From Alphaproteobacteria bacterium (GTDB lineage: Bacteria > Pseudomonadota > Alphaproteobacteria > JAUHZC01), in NCBI GenBank assembly GCA_023898725.1, contig CP060236.1, positions 342,804 to 406,803 of the forward strand: a DNA stretch of 64,000 nucleotides. The letters are read 5' to 3'. Each line of letters starts with the position of its first letter. The stretch's first letter is position 1. Shown piece after piece: positions 4,185-39,381 of the stretch. The notes under the pieces are model-generated. The model searched no databases, was not told the DNA's origin, and saw only the letters and a list, made by a program, of their open reading frames with translations. Both the position numbers and the translations under genes were made by a program.

Positions 4185-4637
4185 TTGACACACTCATACC
4201 AGGAAACCAAACCCCTGACTGTGGCCCTTCCCTTAGGATTGTTTGGTTTTGAGACAATACGTGCGGGGGGAATTTCTGCGAATCGACATTTTTGCAAACA
4301 CAACATCCCTATTTTTACGCTTCACTCCGAAGATACCTTATTTACACTTGATATCCTTGAGACAAATTTTCACTACTATGGGGAAGATATCCGTCATTTC
4401 ATTAACCAGCTATATCCCAAGGCAGAAACAGACGTGACAATTTTTATTCCTCTTTGTATACAAAGGACAAGTTCTGGTGCAAGAATTATGGGGAACCTAC
4501 GCTGCCCGCTTATCCTAAACAATCAGACGCTCTGCACGCACCAACTAGTCCTCAGCGCCAGCAACCTAACAATGCATGGTCACCTATTTACAGTTCATGA
4601 GCCCACACTCATCCAGCCTGACATGTATGATGCCTAA
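4185..4637 (+). CDS. FliW-like protein (flagellar assembly factor / CsrA-antagonist family), orphan
   Basis: 150-aa ORF with a TTG start. The pattern LPLGLFGFE...PIFTLHSED..F.L....F..YGEDI...VTIFIPL......MGNLRCPLILNNQTLCTHQLVL parallels FliW (GxPGFe..., ..NLxAPIviN....gxQvvL). No database search was run. Confidence 0.45.
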   Translation: MTHSYQETKPLTVALPLGLFGFETIRAGGISANRHFCKHNIPIFTLHSEDTLFTLDILETNFHYYGEDIRHFINQLYPKAETDVTIFIPLCIQRTSSGARIMGNLRCPLILNNQTLCTHQLVLSASNLTMHGHLFTVHEPTLIQPDMYDA

Positions 4638-29420: not shown

Positions 29421-30060
29421 GGAGCGCCAGGAGTCATGAATGTTCCTCATTTCACATGGGGTATCTTGGGTGTATGCTATCTATCGCTTTGCATGCACCA
29501 CATCTTTTTTTCGCTACGGAATGTATCTTTTTAGGTGATACTCTTGCTTATTCTTACAGGGCTATAGGATAATCCTTCCTGTAGAAAGATCTAACAGGTA
29601 GCAAAAATCCAGGCTTGAGTGTTTCTTTCTGAATTGCCCCAATTACAAGCGGGTAGTGTTGCATTAGCTACGAACATCCAGCTTTGCCGTGATGCCCACA
29701 CTCATAGCTCTTTGCAATAAAGACTTTCCCTTGAGAATATACGATAGCGCGATGGTATCCACCACCGAGACTATAACCCCCTTGCGCGATGGGGTTATGT
29801 TCGCTTGCGCCTGCCCAAATTGTATGTGTTGAATTATTTTTCTTCGGATAAAAACCCAACAATAAAACCGCTCACACATCATCTTTTAGGGCTTCACAGA
29901 CGCAATAGATTTTCTTGCACCATAAAATAAAGATAAATTAATTTAAAAAAATACCTAATTATTTAACTTATTTTTAACAAAAAACATCTTTAATGATCTT
30001 AGATAATTAAATTACCAATGATCCATGCAGGATGTGTGGTGAAGGTAAGGAGTAAAAAAT

Positions 30061-30603
30061 ATGGCAGAAAGCACCCAGCATATTCTCGATCGCGTACGTC
30101 GGCCACGTGTTCACATCACGTATGACGTTGAGATCGGTGATGCAATTCAGCTGAAAGAGCTTCCTTTTGTGATGGGCATATTAGCTGACCTTAGTGGCGT
30201 GCCAGCGGAGAAACCTCCACGTATCGCTGATCGGAAGTTCGTCGAGATTGATCTTGAAAACTTCGATTCTGTCTTTGCTTCATATAAACCCCGCCTTCAA
30301 TTTGTTGTTGACAACAAACTTCCTGGAGATTCCGAGCGCATAAATATCGAATTGGAGCTTCGGTGCTTGGATGACTTTAATCCCTTAAGAGTTATTCGGC
30401 AGATTCCTGAAATGAAAGCTCTCCACGACTCACGTACACTGTTGAATGATCTCATTGGAAAACTTGATGGAAACGAGGTTCTTGAGGGAATGCTTGGTCA
30501 AATTATTGAAGACAAAGCTCTGCGGGATGGCATTCTTGCTGAGATTGAGAAAATTGCACCCGCACCCGCACCTGAAGGCGATGCACCAAAAAGCAAAGCT
30601 TAA
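30061..30603 (+). CDS. tssB: Type VI secretion system contractile sheath small subunit TssB (VipA/ImpB)
   Basis: RPRVHITYDVEIGDAIQLKELPFVMGILADLSG...DRKFVEIDLENFD...DDFNP closely parallels canonical TssB (for example the P. aeruginosa TssB1 pattern). Strong AAGGAG SD 8 nt upstream. Confidence 0.9.
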   Translation: MAESTQHILDRVRRPRVHITYDVEIGDAIQLKELPFVMGILADLSGVPAEKPPRIADRKFVEIDLENFDSVFASYKPRLQFVVDNKLPGDSERINIELELRCLDDFNPLRVIRQIPEMKALHDSRTLLNDLIGKLDGNEVLEGMLGQIIEDKALRDGILAEIEKIAPAPAPEGDAPKSKA

Positions 30604-30624
30604 GGATAACTAGGAGATTTTGAA

Positions 30625-32073
30625 ATGGCGGACGTAGAGAATAAAATTACTTTAGAAGATATCCTTGTAAAAGGACGCTTGGCGAAAGATGAAGACAAGC
30701 GCCCAGCAGGACTTGAGCAGCTTCGTGAGTTAATTTCACAAATAAACAACACAGAGGACAATCAAATCAAGCATGTTGGCCCCTTTATGTCACACCGCAT
30801 TCAGCAAATTGATACCGCGCTTAGTGAACAACTAGATGTCATTATTCATGATCCCATCTTTCAGAAACTAGAAGGATCATGGCGTGGGTTACATTACCTT
30901 GTCAATAAAAGTCATACGAGCTCTACCCTCAAACTTCGGTTAATGAATATCTCCAAGCCAGAGCTTCTGCAAGATCTTGAAAAGGCGGTTGAGTTCGATC
31001 AAAGTCAGCTATTCAAAAAAGTCTACGAAGAGGAGTACGGAACCTTTGGTGGTGCGCCCTATTCATGTCTTGTAGGTGATTATGAGTTTGGTAGTCATCC
31101 CCTTGATATGGCACTCATACGCAAAATAGCACAGGTAGCTTCGGCCGCGCACACACCTTTTATATCTGGTGCAGCACCATCACTTTTCAATCTTGAAAGT
31201 TTTTCTGATCTTGGTGTCCCACGGGATCTTGCACGCACCTTTGAGAGCACCGAGCTTCTGAAATGGCGATCCTTTCGGGAAAGTGAAGATTCTCGATACG
31301 TTGCTCTGACTTTACCGCATGTGCTAACACGTCTGCCCTACGGTCCCGATACAAACCCTGTTGAAGACCTTAATTATACCGAAAAAGTTGAAGGAACGGA
31401 TAACAGTAAGTTCTGCTGGGGAAATGCTTCATATGTCCTTGGGGAGCGCATTACAAATGCCGCTTTCCTTTACAACTGGACAACTGCCATACGCGGGGTT
31501 GAAGGGGGGGGGCTCGTAGAGGACTTGCCGACCTATACATTCAAAACCACGGATGGTGATGTGGCACTGAAATGTCCCACAGAAGTTGCCATTACCGACC
31601 GCCGTGAGAAAGAACTGTCTGATCTTGGATTTATATCACTATGTCACTGCAAGGGTTCGGACTATGCGGCGTTTTTCGGTGGCCAAACAGCCCAACGCCC
31701 CAAAAAGTTCAGCACCGCAGATGCAAATGCTAATGCACAATTATCGGCACGCTTAACATACATGCTGGCTGCATCACGATTCGCCCACTACATCAAGGCA
31801 ATCATTCGGGATAAAATCGGTAGCTTTCTGTCAAAGGATGACGTCGCAAACTATCTGAATAAGTGGATTGCAAACTACGTTTTGCTCTCTGATGAGGCAA
31901 CACAAAGCACAAAAGCACGCTTTCCTCTTCGCGAAGCACGTATCGATGTGTTTGACATTCCAGGAAAACCGGGCTCATACCGGGCAACCGTTTTCTTAAG
32001 GCCGCATTTTCAGTTGGAAGAGCTTACAGCGTCGATTCGTCTGGTTGCAACTCTTCCTGCTCCTGCCGCGTAA
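30625..32073 (+). CDS. tssC: Type VI secretion system contractile sheath large subunit TssC (VipB/ImpC)
   Basis: 482 aa. [39 protein letters not shown] and [16 protein letters not shown] are typical TssC blocks. Follows tssB by 21 nt, with a TAGGAG SD. Confidence 0.9.
31504..31512 (+). repeat. G9 homopolymer inside tssC (encodes Gly-Gly-Gly)
   Basis: Direct read: gaaGGGGGGGGGctc. In-frame as GAA GGG GGG GGG CTC (VEGGGLVE). Confidence 0.95.
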
Positions 32074-32107
32074 AAACCCTTAAAGTACATCACGAAAGGA
32101 ATAAGCC

Positions 32108-32674
32108 ATGCCACTCGATTATGCAGCAGAAACAACCGCCGCCTCAACGATGAATGAGCGTAACCCTGTTACGAGCCAACATTCAAATTATTCACAACGC
32201 ACACAAACCCCTGAGTGGATTATTCGTGTAGGAGAAAACCTTGTGAGCTCATACATTGAAGGATTCACAGAACACACAGAGTGCTTTAGCTGGGGATTCA
32301 AACTTTCAAAGCCTACAAACCCCTCTTCCACAGGCCCCTTGTATTCATCTGCTGTGGTAACCATTAGTGATATTCAGGTTGTGATCTCAAACACGGACTC
32401 ATCCACAACACTGGAATACCGTATGATGATTGGTGAAGCACTATCATCCATTTCTTTGAAGCGTATTGCTAATATTAATGGTGTTAATGTGGTTGCTTTG
32501 GATATGGAGTTTACAAATTGCTTTACGCAATCGATCGAACCATATGGTGATATGCTAAAAATGACGTTTAAGTGCACGCATTACAAAAAAACAGCATTCC
32601 GCTTTGATCAAAATGGGGACGCAAAGGGTCAAACAGAGGTTTCCTTCTGTTTCGAAACCGGAGTGGCGAAATAA
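32108..32674 (+). CDS. hcp: Divergent Hcp (TssD)-like tube protein with a polar N-terminal extension
   Basis: Position immediately after tssC. By-eye alignment to Hcp1: EWIIRVGENLVSS..TEHTECFSWGFKLSKP vs DMFIKIGDVKGES..HAEEIDVLAWSWGMSQS, and a C-terminal DMLKMTFKCTHYKKTAFRFDQNGDAKGQTEVSF vs ENVTLNFAQVQVDYQPQ..DG. AGGAA SD upstream. Confidence 0.55.
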   Translation: MPLDYAAETTAASTMNERNPVTSQHSNYSQRTQTPEWIIRVGENLVSSYIEGFTEHTECFSWGFKLSKPTNPSSTGPLYSSAVVTISDIQVVISNTDSSTTLEYRMMIGEALSSISLKRIANINGVNVVALDMEFTNCFTQSIEPYGDMLKMTFKCTHYKKTAFRFDQNGDAKGQTEVSFCFETGVAK

Positions 32675-32701
32675 GAGCCACGCCTTACTACTGGCTAGCA
32701 A

Positions 32702-32735
32702 AAACCTGCTTTGGTTATACCCTTGCGGGTTTTTC
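32702..32735 (+). terminator. Putative rho-independent terminator after the hcp-like gene
   Basis: AAACCTGC-(15 nt loop)-GCGGGTTT followed by TTTCC. 8-bp stem with one G-U pair. The large loop lowers confidence. Confidence 0.4.
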
Positions 32736-32858: not shown

Positions 32859-32935
32859 CGGGGTGTAGCGCAGCCTGGTAGCGCGCCTGCTTTGGGAGCA
32901 GGATGTCGGGAGTTCGAATCTCTCCACCCCGACCA
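32859..32935 (+). tRNA. tRNA-Pro (anticodon TGG)
   Basis: Acceptor CGGGGTG/CACCCCG, D arm GCGC-AGCCTGGTA-GCGC, anticodon stem CCTGC/GCAGG with loop TTTGGGA, T loop TTCGAAT, and an encoded CCA. Confidence 0.9.
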
Positions 32936-34315: not shown

Positions 34316-36466
34316 TTATTTGGATACAAGTGTCCATGATCCGTCCCACCCCTCTAAAGGAGGCTTCTTGATAAACACTTCACACCTTTCAATAAATTCT
34401 TCGATGATTGCTTGCTGTGTTTCTGATAGGTTTTGGAGCCCTTGAACGGTTTTTATAGCCTGTTTGAAGTTCAAATTAAGGTAGAAATCAAAAGCCCTAT
34501 TGAACCCCGTCACATACGCCATCATATTCTTATCGGGAACCCCTAGATTATGATCAGCCTGATGGCCAACCAGTTCATAGGTATGCACGCCCTTTGTCCT
34601 GCCTTTGACGACAATCACATCAACACTCCTGCACACAAACTCATCTTTGACGAGAGCATAAAGAGACTCACTGATAAGAATGTGTGTGCGATAAAATTTG
34701 TTTGCACCCTCAAGGCGGGCAGCAAGGTTTACATTATCTCCCATAACAGTGTAATTCATGCGATCAGAAGACCCTATGTTTCCAACAACAACCTCACCGT
34801 GGTGGAGACCAAAACGTGTTTTAAGAACCGGTTTGTTTGCCTTTTCCCACTGGGCGTTATAGTCACGCAGCGCATTAAAACAAGCTAGGGTTGCTCTGCA
34901 AGCATTTTTGCCTTGGGTCTTATCATCATCAGGCGCACCCCAAAAAGCCATAATAGCATCACCAATGTACTTATCGATGAGTCCCTCGTGACGCATAATA
35001 ATTTGGGATAATCCTTCAAAATAGACAGAAATATGCTTCATGAGATCTTCGGGGGAAAGCCCTTCAGATACCGTTGAGAACCCCTCAATATCAGTAAAAA
35101 GAAGAGTGAGTGGTTTTCTTTCACCCCCGATTTCTATTTCTTTTTCTGTTCCCACAAGTTTGCGTACAAGTTGTGAGGGCATATATTTTGTAAAAATACG
35201 CAAACTATGACGTGTATTCTGGAGCGTTCGCGCTAACGTTCCCACTTCGCTGATCTTTGATGTTATTTTTTCACGATCTGTGAGATCAAATTTTCCAATT
35301 TGTTCCGCGTGCGCTGTGAGATCTTGAATGGGATAAGCAATTCGTCGCGCTAACAAAATAATCTGTAAGCACGCTATAAACAAAATAAAAACATAAAGGC
35401 TATAATTGTGGTTTTCTATTTGTGCTTGTGAATAAACATACTCTTCGTAATTTGTAACACTGACAATTATCCATTCAAGATTTTCCACATCAAACATACG
35501 CAACACATTAACAAGGTATTTTTTTTCTTGGATAGTGATAAAAAACGTATTTTCTTTGCTCTGTGCAAATGTATCCATAGCTAAGCGCAAATGGCCACTG
35601 CTCAGTTGATTGATATGGATCAGCCCCTGCGCTTCGCTGTGGGTGGAATTATTCAGAATCTCAGATTGAGCAACAATCTTGTTTTCAGCATTCAAAATGC
35701 AAACAAACGAATCCGGGGAAATCTTTCTTTCGCGCAGTTCACGAGAGAGACTGGTGATGTCAAAATCAACACCAATTACTGCAGGAACACCTGAGTCTTG
35801 CCTACGAAGAGGAATTGATACAGTAACCACAGGCTTCGCAATCGAACCAAAAACATAGGCATCAATGATTGATAGGCGCCTGTTTGTAACAGCCTCCTTG
35901 AACCAGGGGCGTTGAGTCGGATCATATCGGGTGCGTGCGATATATTCTTTTTCAACCACGGTGCGGGCACTGTCCGTATAAAACCATGTTTCTCCAAGAA
36001 GTGGCGCGGAGATGATCCGATACCGAAATCGTACATTATCGGGAATACGGGTTTGCTCATCAAACACAAGGCTGTCTTGGGGAGAGGTCCTGCTGATTTG
36101 AAAAAATGCTTTATCTGGATACCCAACATATAGGCTCCAAATATCCTGATTCTGATCCATCAGAAAGCTTAAGTATTGGGCCTGTTGATCCTCGATACTC
36201 CCAATGAGAGGAGAAACAAGAACGCGGGTGGTTGTTTCAGCAACCTTGCGTGTCGTTTCTAACTTCTGCAAAACCAGGGATTCAATGCTTTCATTGTATT
36301 TTTGAATGTTATTTTTTACAAAGGTTTCTTCGCGTGAGCGCACACGCATATTGGTAAAATACCCAAGAACAAGGAGCGTGATAACTAAAAGAGAGATAAC
36401 CTGAAAGAGAACATAAAGCTCAAGAGTGAACTGATTAAATAACTTTTTGTATCGACGCGTAATCAT
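34316..36466 (-). CDS. Membrane sensor class III adenylate/guanylate cyclase (TM - dCache-like periplasmic domain - TM - HAMP - cyclase)
   Basis: Two TM segments flank a periplasmic region of about 300 aa. A HAMP-like linker follows. Cyclase motifs are LTLLFTDIEGFSTVSE, IGDAIMAFWGAP and GLHHGEVVVGNIGS..RMNYTVMGDNVNLAARLEG. Confidence 0.85.
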   Translation of the reverse strand: MITRRYKKLFNQFTLELYVLFQVISLLVITLLVLGYFTNMRVRSREETFVKNNIQKYNESIESLVLQKLETTRKVAETTTRVLVSPLIGSIEDQQAQYLSFLMDQNQDIWSLYVGYPDKAFFQISRTSPQDSLVFDEQTRIPDNVRFRYRIISAPLLGETWFYTDSARTVVEKEYIARTRYDPTQRPWFKEAVTNRRLSIIDAYVFGSIAKPVVTVSIPLRRQDSGVPAVIGVDFDITSLSRELRERKISPDSFVCILNAENKIVAQSEILNNSTHSEAQGLIHINQLSSGHLRLAMDTFAQSKENTFFITIQEKKYLVNVLRMFDVENLEWIIVSVTNYEEYVYSQAQIENHNYSLYVFILFIACLQIILLARRIAYPIQDLTAHAEQIGKFDLTDREKITSKISEVGTLARTLQNTRHSLRIFTKYMPSQLVRKLVGTEKEIEIGGERKPLTLLFTDIEGFSTVSEGLSPEDLMKHISVYFEGLSQIIMRHEGLIDKYIGDAIMAFWGAPDDDKTQGKNACRATLACFNALRDYNAQWEKANKPVLKTRFGLHHGEVVVGNIGSSDRMNYTVMGDNVNLAARLEGANKFYRTHILISESLYALVKDEFVCRSVDVIVVKGRTKGVHTYELVGHQADHNLGVPDKNMMAYVTGFNRAFDFYLNLNFKQAIKTVQGLQNLSETQQAIIEEFIERCEVFIKKPPLEGWDGSWTLVSK

Positions 36467-36482
36467 AGATATACATCCACAT

Positions 36483-37535
36483 TTACCTGTAGTGTTTCTT
36501 GGTTACGCGTGCAAACGCATCATAAATATCAGGAAGCTCAATGTTCATTTTTTCCACAATGGAATCACGGATACACACAATAAACTGCTCTGTTCGAACG
36601 ATTGGGATATCCTTAGCGGTTTTTCCCCCAATCACAATTTGCTGTGCTGCAAGACCCGCTGATGACCCTTGCTCGTAAGGAGATGTGGCAATCGCAAGAC
36701 CGCCTCCCTCCTCAACAAAGAACGCATTAACGCCAATTGCTGGAATTGTGGCATTTTGCATCGTCCACTCAAGAACCTCTTTTGGTGACATGAACTCCTT
36801 GTCATTTGGATTCCTACGAATAGAGCGATAGTTTGAAATAGTAATGAAGTCCAAGGTCTTATTGGCCTCAAGAACGGCCTTTTTCCACTCATCGAATGTT
36901 CCCACAAGTTTGGAATCTTCAAGCTTCACACGTCCCCACTCAGAAAATTGACGCATGTATTTATCATCATTTTGAACAGTAGGAGAATTATCACTAATGT
37001 GAGCTGTGCGAATCTGCACATTCTCCGCAAGACCCCGCTGTCGGGCAAGCAAGTAAAATGTATCCCGCAATCCCCCCAACGGGAGTCTTTCCAAAATACC
37101 TGTTACATTCTTTGCTTTGTCGTAACCATACGTTTCTTGAGAAGCATTTACACCGGAAAAAATAACGCTAATATTGGGATCATTAATATAGTATTGGCCA
37201 ACAAGACGCTGCGCATCATCATCGACACAAATAATCACTTGCGGACGAATAGCACCGATTAATCGTCGCGTAATCAAGCCAGCATTGCGAAGGTATGTAG
37301 GCCAAGTATGCCTCTTTGTGTCCATATAATGATAGCGAACATTGTAGCGTTTTTCATTCGCAAAAATGTTTTTTAGGCCACTATTTACATCACGCACCCA
37401 ACTATAGTCTGTTTGATAGCTGTGCACCACAAGCACTTCTTTGCGTCCAGAATTATGGATAATAAAAAATGTAAACGCAAAAAGAAGAAGAAGTGAAGGT
37501 ATGATGTAATCAAAACGAATTTTCGATGTGAACAT
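36483..37535 (-). CDS. Membrane-anchored periplasmic substrate-binding protein (ABC_sub_bind / COG2984-like)
   Basis: N-terminal TM segment IIPSLLLLFAFTFFII, then KEVLVVHSYQTDYSWVRDVNSGL, typical of the 'ABC transporter substrate-binding' PBP family. No ABC permease or ATPase genes nearby. Confidence 0.6.
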   Translation of the reverse strand: MFTSKIRFDYIIPSLLLLFAFTFFIIHNSGRKEVLVVHSYQTDYSWVRDVNSGLKNIFANEKRYNVRYHYMDTKRHTWPTYLRNAGLITRRLIGAIRPQVIICVDDDAQRLVGQYYINDPNISVIFSGVNASQETYGYDKAKNVTGILERLPLGGLRDTFYLLARQRGLAENVQIRTAHISDNSPTVQNDDKYMRQFSEWGRVKLEDSKLVGTFDEWKKAVLEANKTLDFITISNYRSIRRNPNDKEFMSPKEVLEWTMQNATIPAIGVNAFFVEEGGGLAIATSPYEQGSSAGLAAQQIVIGGKTAKDIPIVRTEQFIVCIRDSIVEKMNIELPDIYDAFARVTKKHYR

Positions 37536-37557
37536 GTTTTGTAATCCTACGTAGATA

Positions 37558-39381
37558 CTAATTAAACATAAGGCCTAGGCTCTTCCAAAAAGGAAGAGAT
37601 AGGTATATTGCCGCAATACGTCCTATATTCATAAGCGCATTAAATAGAAGGAAAGAACTCTCTTTATACGGAAGCGCTTTTGAAAATGATTCTGTAAACT
37701 TTGTGTAGAAAGGAGATTGATACGGAAACCACCAAATATCAGCTGACATCAGCAAAACAAAACCAAGAACCCACAAACTCAAACCGAATGATTCCGAAAC
37801 AGGAACCATGATAGCCGAAAGAAGAGCAATTGCCGGTCCAATAGGAAGAATAAGCCGCACGACAACCATTATTCCCACAAGCACCATAATAAGCTTCCCA
37901 AGATCCTGCTCAGAAATAAAGGCCTTAAGCAGGGGAAGAATGTAAGAGAGAAACATATTATCCACACCAAGGAACTGCATACATTTATTGATGCCGATGA
38001 TCGTTGCCAGAAATACGAGAAAAGACCAATCCGTATCTTTTTGCCATTTCTCTGTACCAATAAGATTCATGGAGAGAATAGCAAAAAGAAGGAAGAGACT
38101 GACCCACTCAATAGGGATACGATGATACTGGGTAGTAAAAAGCGATATAACAAAAAAGATCACACATCCCAAAGCCATTACTTCTTGTGATGACATAGAA
38201 GCACGGGCTTTGATCTGAAGATCAATCATTGGCTTTGACACGTTAATTTTTGTGCGCGTCGCAAAGAAAATTGAGGAGGTTACAAGGTAGAAAACACTCA
38301 GTACCCCCCCTACGACACCCGCACTATAAAACCAACCAATGGTTATAATGTTTTGCTGCTCTTGAAGAGGCAGCAAACCAAATACAACAAAGTTCATAAC
38401 GGATCCTGTGAAAAACACACTACTCAGTATTGTTATGCCAAAAAAGATAGATGCACTAATTTTTGTACTCAAAGTCGTTCCATGAGGAATTCCCAGAATG
38501 TCAAGAGTCTCCTCAACCATCGGAGCTCCCACTTTTGCACGGTTGACTATTGAAGGAATAGCAGGCGTCATGAGGCCCCCAAGAAAAAAAAGCGCAACGT
38601 TATAAAATCCAGATCCTGATGGCAGATACCGAATCAGATAAAGCAAAATTCGTTGGATTAATCCTGATTGGATCAAAAGAAGCCCAATTCCCCACAGCGA
38701 CATCACAAGAATGAAAGGACTTGAAGAAAATCCCGCCAGCACCTCAGCGGGAGGAACAAGCCCCAGAATAAGTGATGCCGCAATAATGATGAGTCCTGGT
38801 ATTGACTCGTGGAAAGTACCAAATACCCAAAAAATAACGCCTGACGACAAAATACTTATGAACAAACGTGTTTCACTAGCAATACCATCATCAAGAAGAG
38901 CATGAATAAAAACAGGCACAATAAAGGCAAATACCCAGCTAATAAGGGCGGAAATTTTTGTTCCCTCATCAACAACAGGCACTGTTTCAATTACTGATTT
39001 TGTCTGCGTAAACGATGAAAATAGAATACTTGAGATATCTTCGTTGTGAGCTTTGATTTTATCAAGAGCACTCACAGGAATGCGAATAATCGTTGATTCC
39101 TCTTTTGCAAGCGCATCTGAACCAAAAAATCGGGATTTGAAATAAGACTCTTCCCCAAAAAATGTTCCCTTATCACATAGCTCCTCTTTGCCATCAATTT
39201 TTATACTGCCTGAGCAGACAAAGTAAATCGCATCCGCCTCTTGTTTCGCTAAGTATACTTTTTTCCCTTTTGCAACAGAAATGACCTCAAGTAAGGGTAT
39301 AATTCGCGCCTTTACCATTGCGGGAAGATCTTTAAATAGTCGATGACTTTTAACAACGTGCAGAATTTCGTTCATATACAT
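37558..39381 (-). CDS. Cyclic-nucleotide-binding domain fused to an SLC13/ArsB-NhaD-type anion permease
   Basis: N-terminal cNMP-binding-like fold of about 125 aa (LFKDLP...GKKVYLAKQEADAIYFVCSGSIKI...GTFFGEESYF...IIRIP), followed by about 12 TM segments with permease-like repeats. Confidence 0.7.
   Translation of the reverse strand: MYMNEILHVVKSHRLFKDLPAMVKARIIPLLEVISVAKGKKVYLAKQEADAIYFVCSGSIKIDGKEELCDKGTFFGEESYFKSRFFGSDALAKEESTIIRIPVSALDKIKAHNEDISSILFSSFTQTKSVIETVPVVDEGTKISALISWVFAFIVPVFIHALLDDGIASETRLFISILSSGVIFWVFGTFHESIPGLIIIAASLILGLVPPAEVLAGFSSSPFILVMSLWGIGLLLIQSGLIQRILLYLIRYLPSGSGFYNVALFFLGGLMTPAIPSIVNRAKVGAPMVEETLDILGIPHGTTLSTKISASIFFGITILSSVFFTGSVMNFVVFGLLPLQEQQNIITIGWFYSAGVVGGVLSVFYLVTSSIFFATRTKINVSKPMIDLQIKARASMSSQEVMALGCVIFFVISLFTTQYHRIPIEWVSLFLLFAILSMNLIGTEKWQKDTDWSFLVFLATIIGINKCMQFLGVDNMFLSYILPLLKAFISEQDLGKLIMVLVGIMVVVRLILPIGPAIALLSAIMVPVSESFGLSLWVLGFVLLMSADIWWFPYQSPFYTKFTESFSKALPYKESSFLLFNALMNIGRIAAIYLSLPFWKSLGLMFN

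Follow-up and report, generated by a model that had tools for sequence, protein, structure and literature searches.

The dispersed type VI secretion system (T6SS) of Holosporales is the closest described counterpart of the genes analysed here. In Bodocaedibacteraceae, Paracaedibacteraceae, and Caedimonadaceae, the T6SS core genes are distributed over at least four sites; their arrangement is conserved, a [tssB-tssC-hcp] module being part of it, and the genomes of the clade further encode tssK-L-M-A, tssF-G, and vgrG modules as part of a single dispersed set (Midha et al, 2021; PMC8163844). The same study reports transcription of T6SS genes by RNA sequencing (RNA-seq) in a related symbiont and mentions an "Hcp-like superfamily protein". 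A 2025 review finds the T6SS conserved in nearly every Holosporales genome, with Holospora as the exception (PMC11909080); elsewhere it has been termed "reduced but potentially functional" or "conserved throughout Holosporales", and the literature regards it as the main candidate host-interaction device of these symbionts. Here, we analyse an islet of three genes, tssB, tssC, and hcp, in a 64,000-nt stretch of an alphaproteobacterial genome (contig CP060236.1, positions 342,804-406,803; hereafter the window). We consider it highly probable that this islet, the expected sheath-tube module of such a system, is a working part (a tssB-tssC-hcp operon) of a dispersed canonical T6SS of type i (T6SS-i) in a Holosporales-type alphaproteobacterium with a small genome; the contig that encodes the window TssC measures 1,107,460 bp.

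As in Ca. Bodocaedibacter vickermanii, the Paracaedibacteraceae, and the Caedimonadaceae (PMC8163844), the module stands alone among housekeeping genes of a host-associated, reduced genome, and its third gene is divergent and "Hcp-like". On both sides it is flanked by non-T6SS genes, with nrdA and nrdB upstream (Pfam) and a proline transfer RNA gene (tRNA-Pro) and a 2-oxoacid dehydrogenase E2 gene downstream. The three open reading frames (ORFs) lie on one strand, exactly where the original prediction, made from the letters alone, had placed them (Table 1). They are separated by intergenic gaps of 21 and 34 nt, and each is preceded by a Shine-Dalgarno motif: AAGGAG for tssB and AGGAG for tssC, both at a distance of 8 nt, and AAGGA at 7 nt for hcp. 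The prediction had described those of tssB and tssC as strong.

tssB and tssC are real, intact sheath genes of the T6SS-i type and score far above curated thresholds. TssB matches PF05591 at 1.7e-49 (Pfam) and the TIGR03358 equivalog with 162 bits (cutoff 97.25) over model positions 1-158 of 160 (NCBIfam), while TssC spans both VipB domains end to end (PF05943, 1e-128; PF18945, 3e-43; Pfam) and reaches 665 bits on the TIGR03355 equivalog (cutoff 271.5; NCBIfam). The best solved relatives are likewise sheath subunits, namely 9n4v_B (2e-46) and P. aeruginosa HsiB1/TssB1 (about 1e-34 to 1e-30) for TssB, and 9n4v_A (2e-199) and P. aeruginosa TssC1 (5n8n_B, 7e-146) for TssC. Moreover, hundreds of TssC proteins share 65-85% identity with the window TssC. 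In contrast, the sheath of the Francisella T6SS-ii is far more distant, with IglB at 1e-66 versus 2e-199 for the best T6SS-i match and IglA at 4e-9 versus 2e-46, so that the canonical T6SS-i assignment proposed for both proteins holds. Francisella is intracellular and its T6SS-ii works without a dedicated ClpV, a lack that may hold for the window system too; the likeness is one of lifestyle only, not of membership.

The contested third gene, whose product is the tube component that the 2025 review lists as apparently missing (PMC11909080), is a true Hcp by structure prediction. As a single sequence it stays just under the threshold of PF05638 (23.4 bits versus a gathering score of 23.5, E = 8e-5) and matches neither TIGR03344 nor any other NCBIfam Hcp model, in keeping with the divergent Hcp-like ORF originally described. 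Since a word-indexed homologue search gave just 5 relatives, an exhaustive profile search was used, which collected 175, 78 of them at E <= 1e-10 and most of them 175-205 aa long. The subfamily alignment and profile comprise 89 of these sequences, 30 of which match PF05638 individually. This profile matches the solved Hcp proteins 7fcf (5e-9), 5xeu (6e-7), 9qpe, 4w64, 5mxn, and EvpC (3eaa) in a range of 5e-9 to 6e-4, at identities of the window Hcp to solved Hcps of 17% or less. An AlphaFold2 model built from a shallow 6-sequence alignment was discarded at a predicted local distance difference test (pLDDT) of 46, and the 89-sequence alignment was used instead. The resulting model (pLDDT 84.7, predicted template-modelling score (pTM) 0.75) displays a β-barrel and one helix after a disordered N-terminus. 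Its top Foldseek matches in the PDB are Hcp structures or chimeras containing Hcp1 (4w64, E = 1.4e-11; 1y12; 3eaa), with target-normalised TM-scores of 0.77-0.89 among the best of them. Thus, profile, model, and structural matches together identify a genuine though sequence-divergent Hcp tube protein whose predicted structure confirms the Hcp fold.

The Hcp subfamily also carries an N-terminal extension of about 30-35 aa, corresponding to residues 1-35 of the window protein (32108-32215), which is variable in sequence and predicted to be disordered; canonical Hcp begins at the first β-strand.

The wider distribution of the module was followed by querying one genome for each species with a TssC alignment, which yielded 80 loci with flanks of ±10 kb; the species of the window is not among them. 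Loci were classified with a hidden Markov model (HMM) of the divergent Hcp subfamily and with the proteins of the Niveispirillum irakense reference cluster (L071), in which the genes are ordered tssK-L-M-A-B-C-hcp-E-F-G-x-x-clpV. At 56 of the 80 loci, other core genes lie beside tssBC and the Hcp is canonical, with at most 53 bits on the subfamily HMM or no match; most of these are typical contiguous clusters and stem from Azospirillum, Desulfobacterales, Nitrospira, Acidobacteriota, and other groups. The other 24 loci hold no core gene beyond tssBC-hcp(-tssE) within 10 kb of tssC. The titles of these islet loci name Holosporaceae, Holosporales, Paracaedibacteraceae (including UBA6184), uncultured Alphaproteobacteria, and rumen RUG bins. 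A divergent Hcp (62-230 bits) directly follows tssC in 23 of the 24, L087 being the exception, which is the position that hcp takes both in the window and in L071. tssE comes after hcp in 13 of them; in L087 it sits on the opposite strand, some 10 kb upstream, and in L010, L014, L015, L032, L037, and L066 it was not found within 10 kb. No clpV was seen near any islet-type locus (±10 kb), and the flanking genes are not conserved among the 24.

The window islet shares the internal order tssB-tssC-hcp-tssE with the contiguous T6SS-i of free-living Rhodospirillales such as Niveispirillum irakense and Azospirillum spp., and of P. aeruginosa (H1-T6SS), and the Azospirillum and Niveispirillum TssC proteins are 61-64% identical to its own. 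It differs from them in the absence of the flanking tssK-L-M-A and tssF-G-clpV blocks and in its Hcp, which belongs to the divergent subfamily. Consequently, the pattern over the 80 loci marks the B-C-hcp(-E) module as a fragment of the ancestral cluster order that was scattered by rearrangement in a host-associated clade. The arrangement is real, already published, and ordinary for the lineage, in which the dispersal once judged unusual is the norm (PMC8163844; the 24 islet loci). The assumed host-associated alphaproteobacterium agrees with the closest TssC proteins from named organisms, those of Ca. Finniella inopinata, Ca. Paracaedibacter, and metagenome-assembled genomes (MAGs) of Holosporaceae and Holosporales.

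The genomes of nine related species have tssB joined in frame to tssC without an intervening stop, giving TssB-TssC fusions of 641-694 aa (fusion junctions in L013, L015, L016, L018, L031, L037, L055, L066, and L087; proteins P0005, P0008, P0009, P0074, P0120, and others). In the Holosporaceae fusion P0074, residues 1-168 make up a complete TssB. No paper on natural sheath-subunit fusions was found in a search of the literature. The fusion cluster of P0008 includes one protein from the EukProt set of the chrysophyte Dinobryon pediforme; that dataset probably contains a symbiont or contaminant from this bacterial clade. Divergent Hcp, cluster fragmentation, and TssB-TssC fusions co-occur in many uncultured protist-associated alphaproteobacteria, a combination that is worth a comparative study.

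About 50 ORFs of the window were scanned against Pfam and/or NCBIfam, and the small intergenic gaps that remain were checked as well. In agreement with the original prediction, no tssA/F/G/K/L/M, vgrG, or clpV was found in the 64 kb, and the gaps hold no candidates. Its further statement that no other T6SS core gene lies nearby is wrong, as the same window contains tssE, which had been overlooked (PF04965, 8.2e-12; TIGR03357 equivalog, 74.2 bits versus a cutoff of 53.2). The 166-aa form is the called gene in a public assembly of the same strain. tssE lies 29.6 kb from hcp, directly upstream of miaA, and shares 53-70% identity with its counterpart immediately after hcp in the relatives L002, L004, and L007. 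Two T6SS loci at this distance already show dispersal, as had been proposed, rather than an orphan fragment.

In L002 (an NCBI MAG; Hcp 82% identical), L004-L006, and L007 (TssC 85% identical), tssB-tssC-hcp-tssE-miaA are contiguous on one strand. L004 and L007 also carry an ABC (ATP-binding cassette)-ATPase gene and an unknown gene of about 215 aa just upstream of tssB, where the window has a 640-bp spacer, and nrdAB is close by; the gene before this pair in relatives is either nrdB or a Na/sulfate symporter gene. Compared with these close relatives, the window has lost the ABC gene pair, and tssE-miaA is displaced and inverted. A tblastn search with the relatives' ABC/217-aa gene pair found no trace of it in the spacer. 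In the 93%-identical relative L089, too, no tssE follows hcp; another gene adjoins hcp there, and the tRNA is absent from this place. Thus, the hcp|tssE break is recent, postdating the split from L002, at a site that kept rearranging; it adds an extra break in this lineage to the published picture. The hcp/tRNA-Pro and tssE boundaries were searched for repeats, inverted or direct, by which a 30-kb inversion might have arisen, but the matches did not exceed chance level, and a single simple inversion relative to L004 was rejected, as the major facilitator superfamily (MFS) gene lies on the plus strand and tssE-miaA on the minus strand. We therefore claim only rearrangement(s). The contiguity of tssB-C-hcp-tssE-miaA with nrdAB nearby in the closest relatives argues for vertical inheritance followed by local rearrangement.

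tssB, tssC, hcp, and tssE are all full length, with neither frameshifts nor internal stops. hcp is under strong purifying selection, with nonsynonymous (dN) and synonymous (dS) substitution rates of 0.041 and 1.06 against the 93%-identical L089 (dN/dS 0.039) and a dN/dS of 0.035 against L002. The ratio is available for hcp only, as dS is saturated for tssB, tssC, and tssE against all available relatives; for tssC, dN is 0.12 versus relatives with saturated dS. The low hcp ratio together with the low tssC dN is hard to square with decay. Among the three options originally raised (a functional machine, a decaying remnant, or a repurposed sheath and tube), function is the best supported, as judged from the intact ORFs, the hcp dN/dS of 0.04, and the retention of the module in 24 species-level genomes; the remnant and repurposing options are without positive support.

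The proposed bounds of the islet were recovered as well, with the tRNA-Pro gene on one side and the AT-rich, non-coding spacer by nrdAB on the other. The GC content of this spacer drops to 18% at 29900-29999, and its small ORFs have no Pfam match. Past the hcp stop codon, RNA folding detects a hairpin of -19.9 kcal/mol (z = -2.7 versus shuffles), and at the corresponding site L089 carries a stronger, canonical one with a T-run. Consensus scanning for promoters and terminators gave no more sites than expected from shuffled sequence; the window hairpin escaped the scanner because of its long loop. Rfam gave no match other than the tRNA.

In the reading that we prefer, an ancestral contiguous cluster (tssK-L-M-A-B-C-hcp-E-F-G-...-clpV, as in free-living Rhodospirillales) was broken by genome rearrangement into scattered modules, with the B-C-hcp(-E) block as one of them among housekeeping genes. 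Further rearrangement in this genome moved tssE-miaA by 29.6 kb and inverted its orientation. tssB, tssC, and hcp are presumably co-transcribed, probably from the AT-rich upstream spacer, and termination would occur at the hairpin after hcp. The sheath and tube products would then join baseplate and membrane-complex proteins encoded elsewhere in this genome, and the assembled machine may fire Hcp/VgrG-borne effectors, probably into a protist host.

Several points weigh against this reading. The search for core genes in this genome covers the 64-kb window, and tssA/F/G/K/L/M and vgrG would have to lie elsewhere in it. No promoter rises above chance, and the organism was placed taxonomically by its TssC neighbours and by synteny. 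PMC8163844 makes no mention of ClpV/TssH; since clpV was not seen near the islet loci either, sheath recycling may be non-canonical. PMC11909080 calls the Holosporales system "probably non-standard", with tube and outer-membrane components apparently lacking. Finally, the Hcp is very divergent from all solved Hcps and bears the additional N-terminal extension.

Some of these traits would also fit a mechanistically distinct, streamlined T6SS variant in Holosporales-type bacteria instead of a scattered canonical system. This is suggested by the divergent Hcp with a disordered extension, which occurs only with fragmented clusters, by TssB-TssC fusions in at least nine species genomes, by the absence of a dedicated ClpV among the genes seen, and by an outer-membrane TssJ that may be missing as well. 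We judge such a variant unlikely, yet if it were real and these traits belonged together, it would constitute a new T6SS subtype adapted to life inside protists.

The likelihood drops considerably further for the two options mentioned above. Loss of the T6SS in a reduced genome, with tssBC-hcp and tssE as leftovers on the way to pseudogenes, would be in line with the small genome (contig of about 1.1 Mb), the fragmented cluster from which tssE split off in this lineage, and the upstream ABC gene pair of relatives that vanished without trace. Decay is nonetheless very improbable given four full-length genes with end-to-end domain coverage, an hcp dN/dS of about 0.04 against two relatives, a TssC that is 85% identical to relatives with saturated synonymous sites, and a module that is kept in 24 species-level genomes and transcribed in a related symbiont (RNA-seq; PMC8163844). 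Equally improbable is a repurposed device, in which TssB, TssC, Hcp, and TssE would operate independently of the classical membrane complex, for instance as a contractile machine in the cytoplasm or outside the cell. A divergent Hcp subfamily with an extra N-terminal segment that is confined to fragmented loci, the fusion of TssB to TssC in some relatives, and the lack of clpV near any islet locus could be taken in its favour. However, published genomes of the clade encode the tssK-L-M-A, tssF-G, and vgrG modules (PMC8163844), TssB and TssC show high conservation relative to the canonical sheaths of T6SS-i, and the window scans revealed no genes of extracellular contractile injection systems (eCIS) or phage tails (tape measure, tail fibre, non-T6SS spike).

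We give hardly any credence to a redundant duplicate, that is, an orphan extra copy beside a complete contiguous T6SS with its own tssBC elsewhere. Orphan hcp/vgrG islands and occasional extra tssBC copies exist in large genomes, and two free-living loci (L047 and L058) show a second tssBC within 10 kb, but a genome of about 1.1 Mb is unlikely to house a second full system, relatives in the literature have a single dispersed set (PMC8163844), and close relatives carry tssBC-hcp with tssE in the ancestral cluster order, which identifies the islet as the original copy. The idea of a horizontally acquired genomic islet integrated beside tRNA-Pro, prompted by the adjacent tRNA gene and the AT-rich boundary, is just as remote and was rejected on GC, synteny, and the missing integrase: the islet genes match their surroundings at 43-48% GC, the window scans found no mobility genes (integrase, transposase, insertion sequence (IS) elements) and flanking direct repeats do not exceed chance, the nrdAB-tssBC-hcp linkage is common to L004 and L007, both without a tRNA there, and L089 has a different gene after hcp and no tRNA.

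Table 1. Positions of the islet, of its flanking elements, and of further features in the window (counted from the first nucleotide of the window).
Feature	Position	Strand	Basis
Non-coding spacer nrdB-tssB, 640 bp, presumed promoter/regulatory region	29421-30060		Composition; no Pfam match in small ORFs
tssB (vipA), contractile sheath small subunit, 180 aa	30061-30603	+	PF05591, TIGR03358, PDB sheath matches
tssC (vipB), contractile sheath large subunit, 482 aa	30625-32073	+	PF05943, PF18945, TIGR03355, PDB sheath matches
hcp (tssD), divergent tube protein, 188 aa, predicted disordered N-terminal extension of ~35 aa	32108-32674	+	Profile, AlphaFold2, Foldseek
Terminator-like hairpin ending in U5, 26 nt past the hcp stop codon, likely operon end	32700-32734	+	RNA fold
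tRNA-Pro(tgg), downstream of hcp	32859-32935
miaA	61402-62304
tssE, gp25-like baseplate subunit, 166 aa from ATG at 62810; ORF extends to TTG at 62864	62310-62810	-	PF04965, TIGR03357
FliW-like ORF	4185-4637	+	PF02623
Cyclase and transport genes	34316-39381	-
Autotransporter beta-domain protein	48802-50049	+
Autotransporter gene and three following ORFs	48802-52832	+
Two unknown ORFs adjoining miaA	60195-61332	+
Gene upstream of tssE, running beyond the window	62922-64000	-

The remaining genes of the window are almost all housekeeping genes (ybeY, phoH, miaB-like, PBP1, mutL, ileS, asd, trxB, nrdAB, fabD/G/F, aspS, secA, and others). The gene upstream of tssE runs beyond the window; its full form (L091:760-5295) encodes 1511 aa, begins with a signal-peptide-like segment, and matches no Pfam or NCBIfam family; the product is a candidate large secreted or effector protein. 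Beyond this ORF lies a SpoU methylase gene. On the other side of tssE, miaA is adjoined by two unknown ORFs (174 and 203 aa) with signal-peptide-like N-termini. Elsewhere in the window, a gene for an autotransporter beta-domain protein precedes three ORFs (298, 402, and 170 aa) without confident family matches. Both groups are possible lineage-specific secreted proteins.

A FliW-like ORF (4e-7) adjoins a MucR/Ros regulator gene, with no other flagellar gene seen in the window. Further, the gene for a membrane adenylate/guanylate cyclase (dCache, HAMP) has as neighbours a substrate-binding-protein-like gene and one for a Na/sulfate-family transporter with a fused cyclic-nucleotide-binding domain, which suggests a local transport module controlled by cyclic nucleoside monophosphates (cNMPs).

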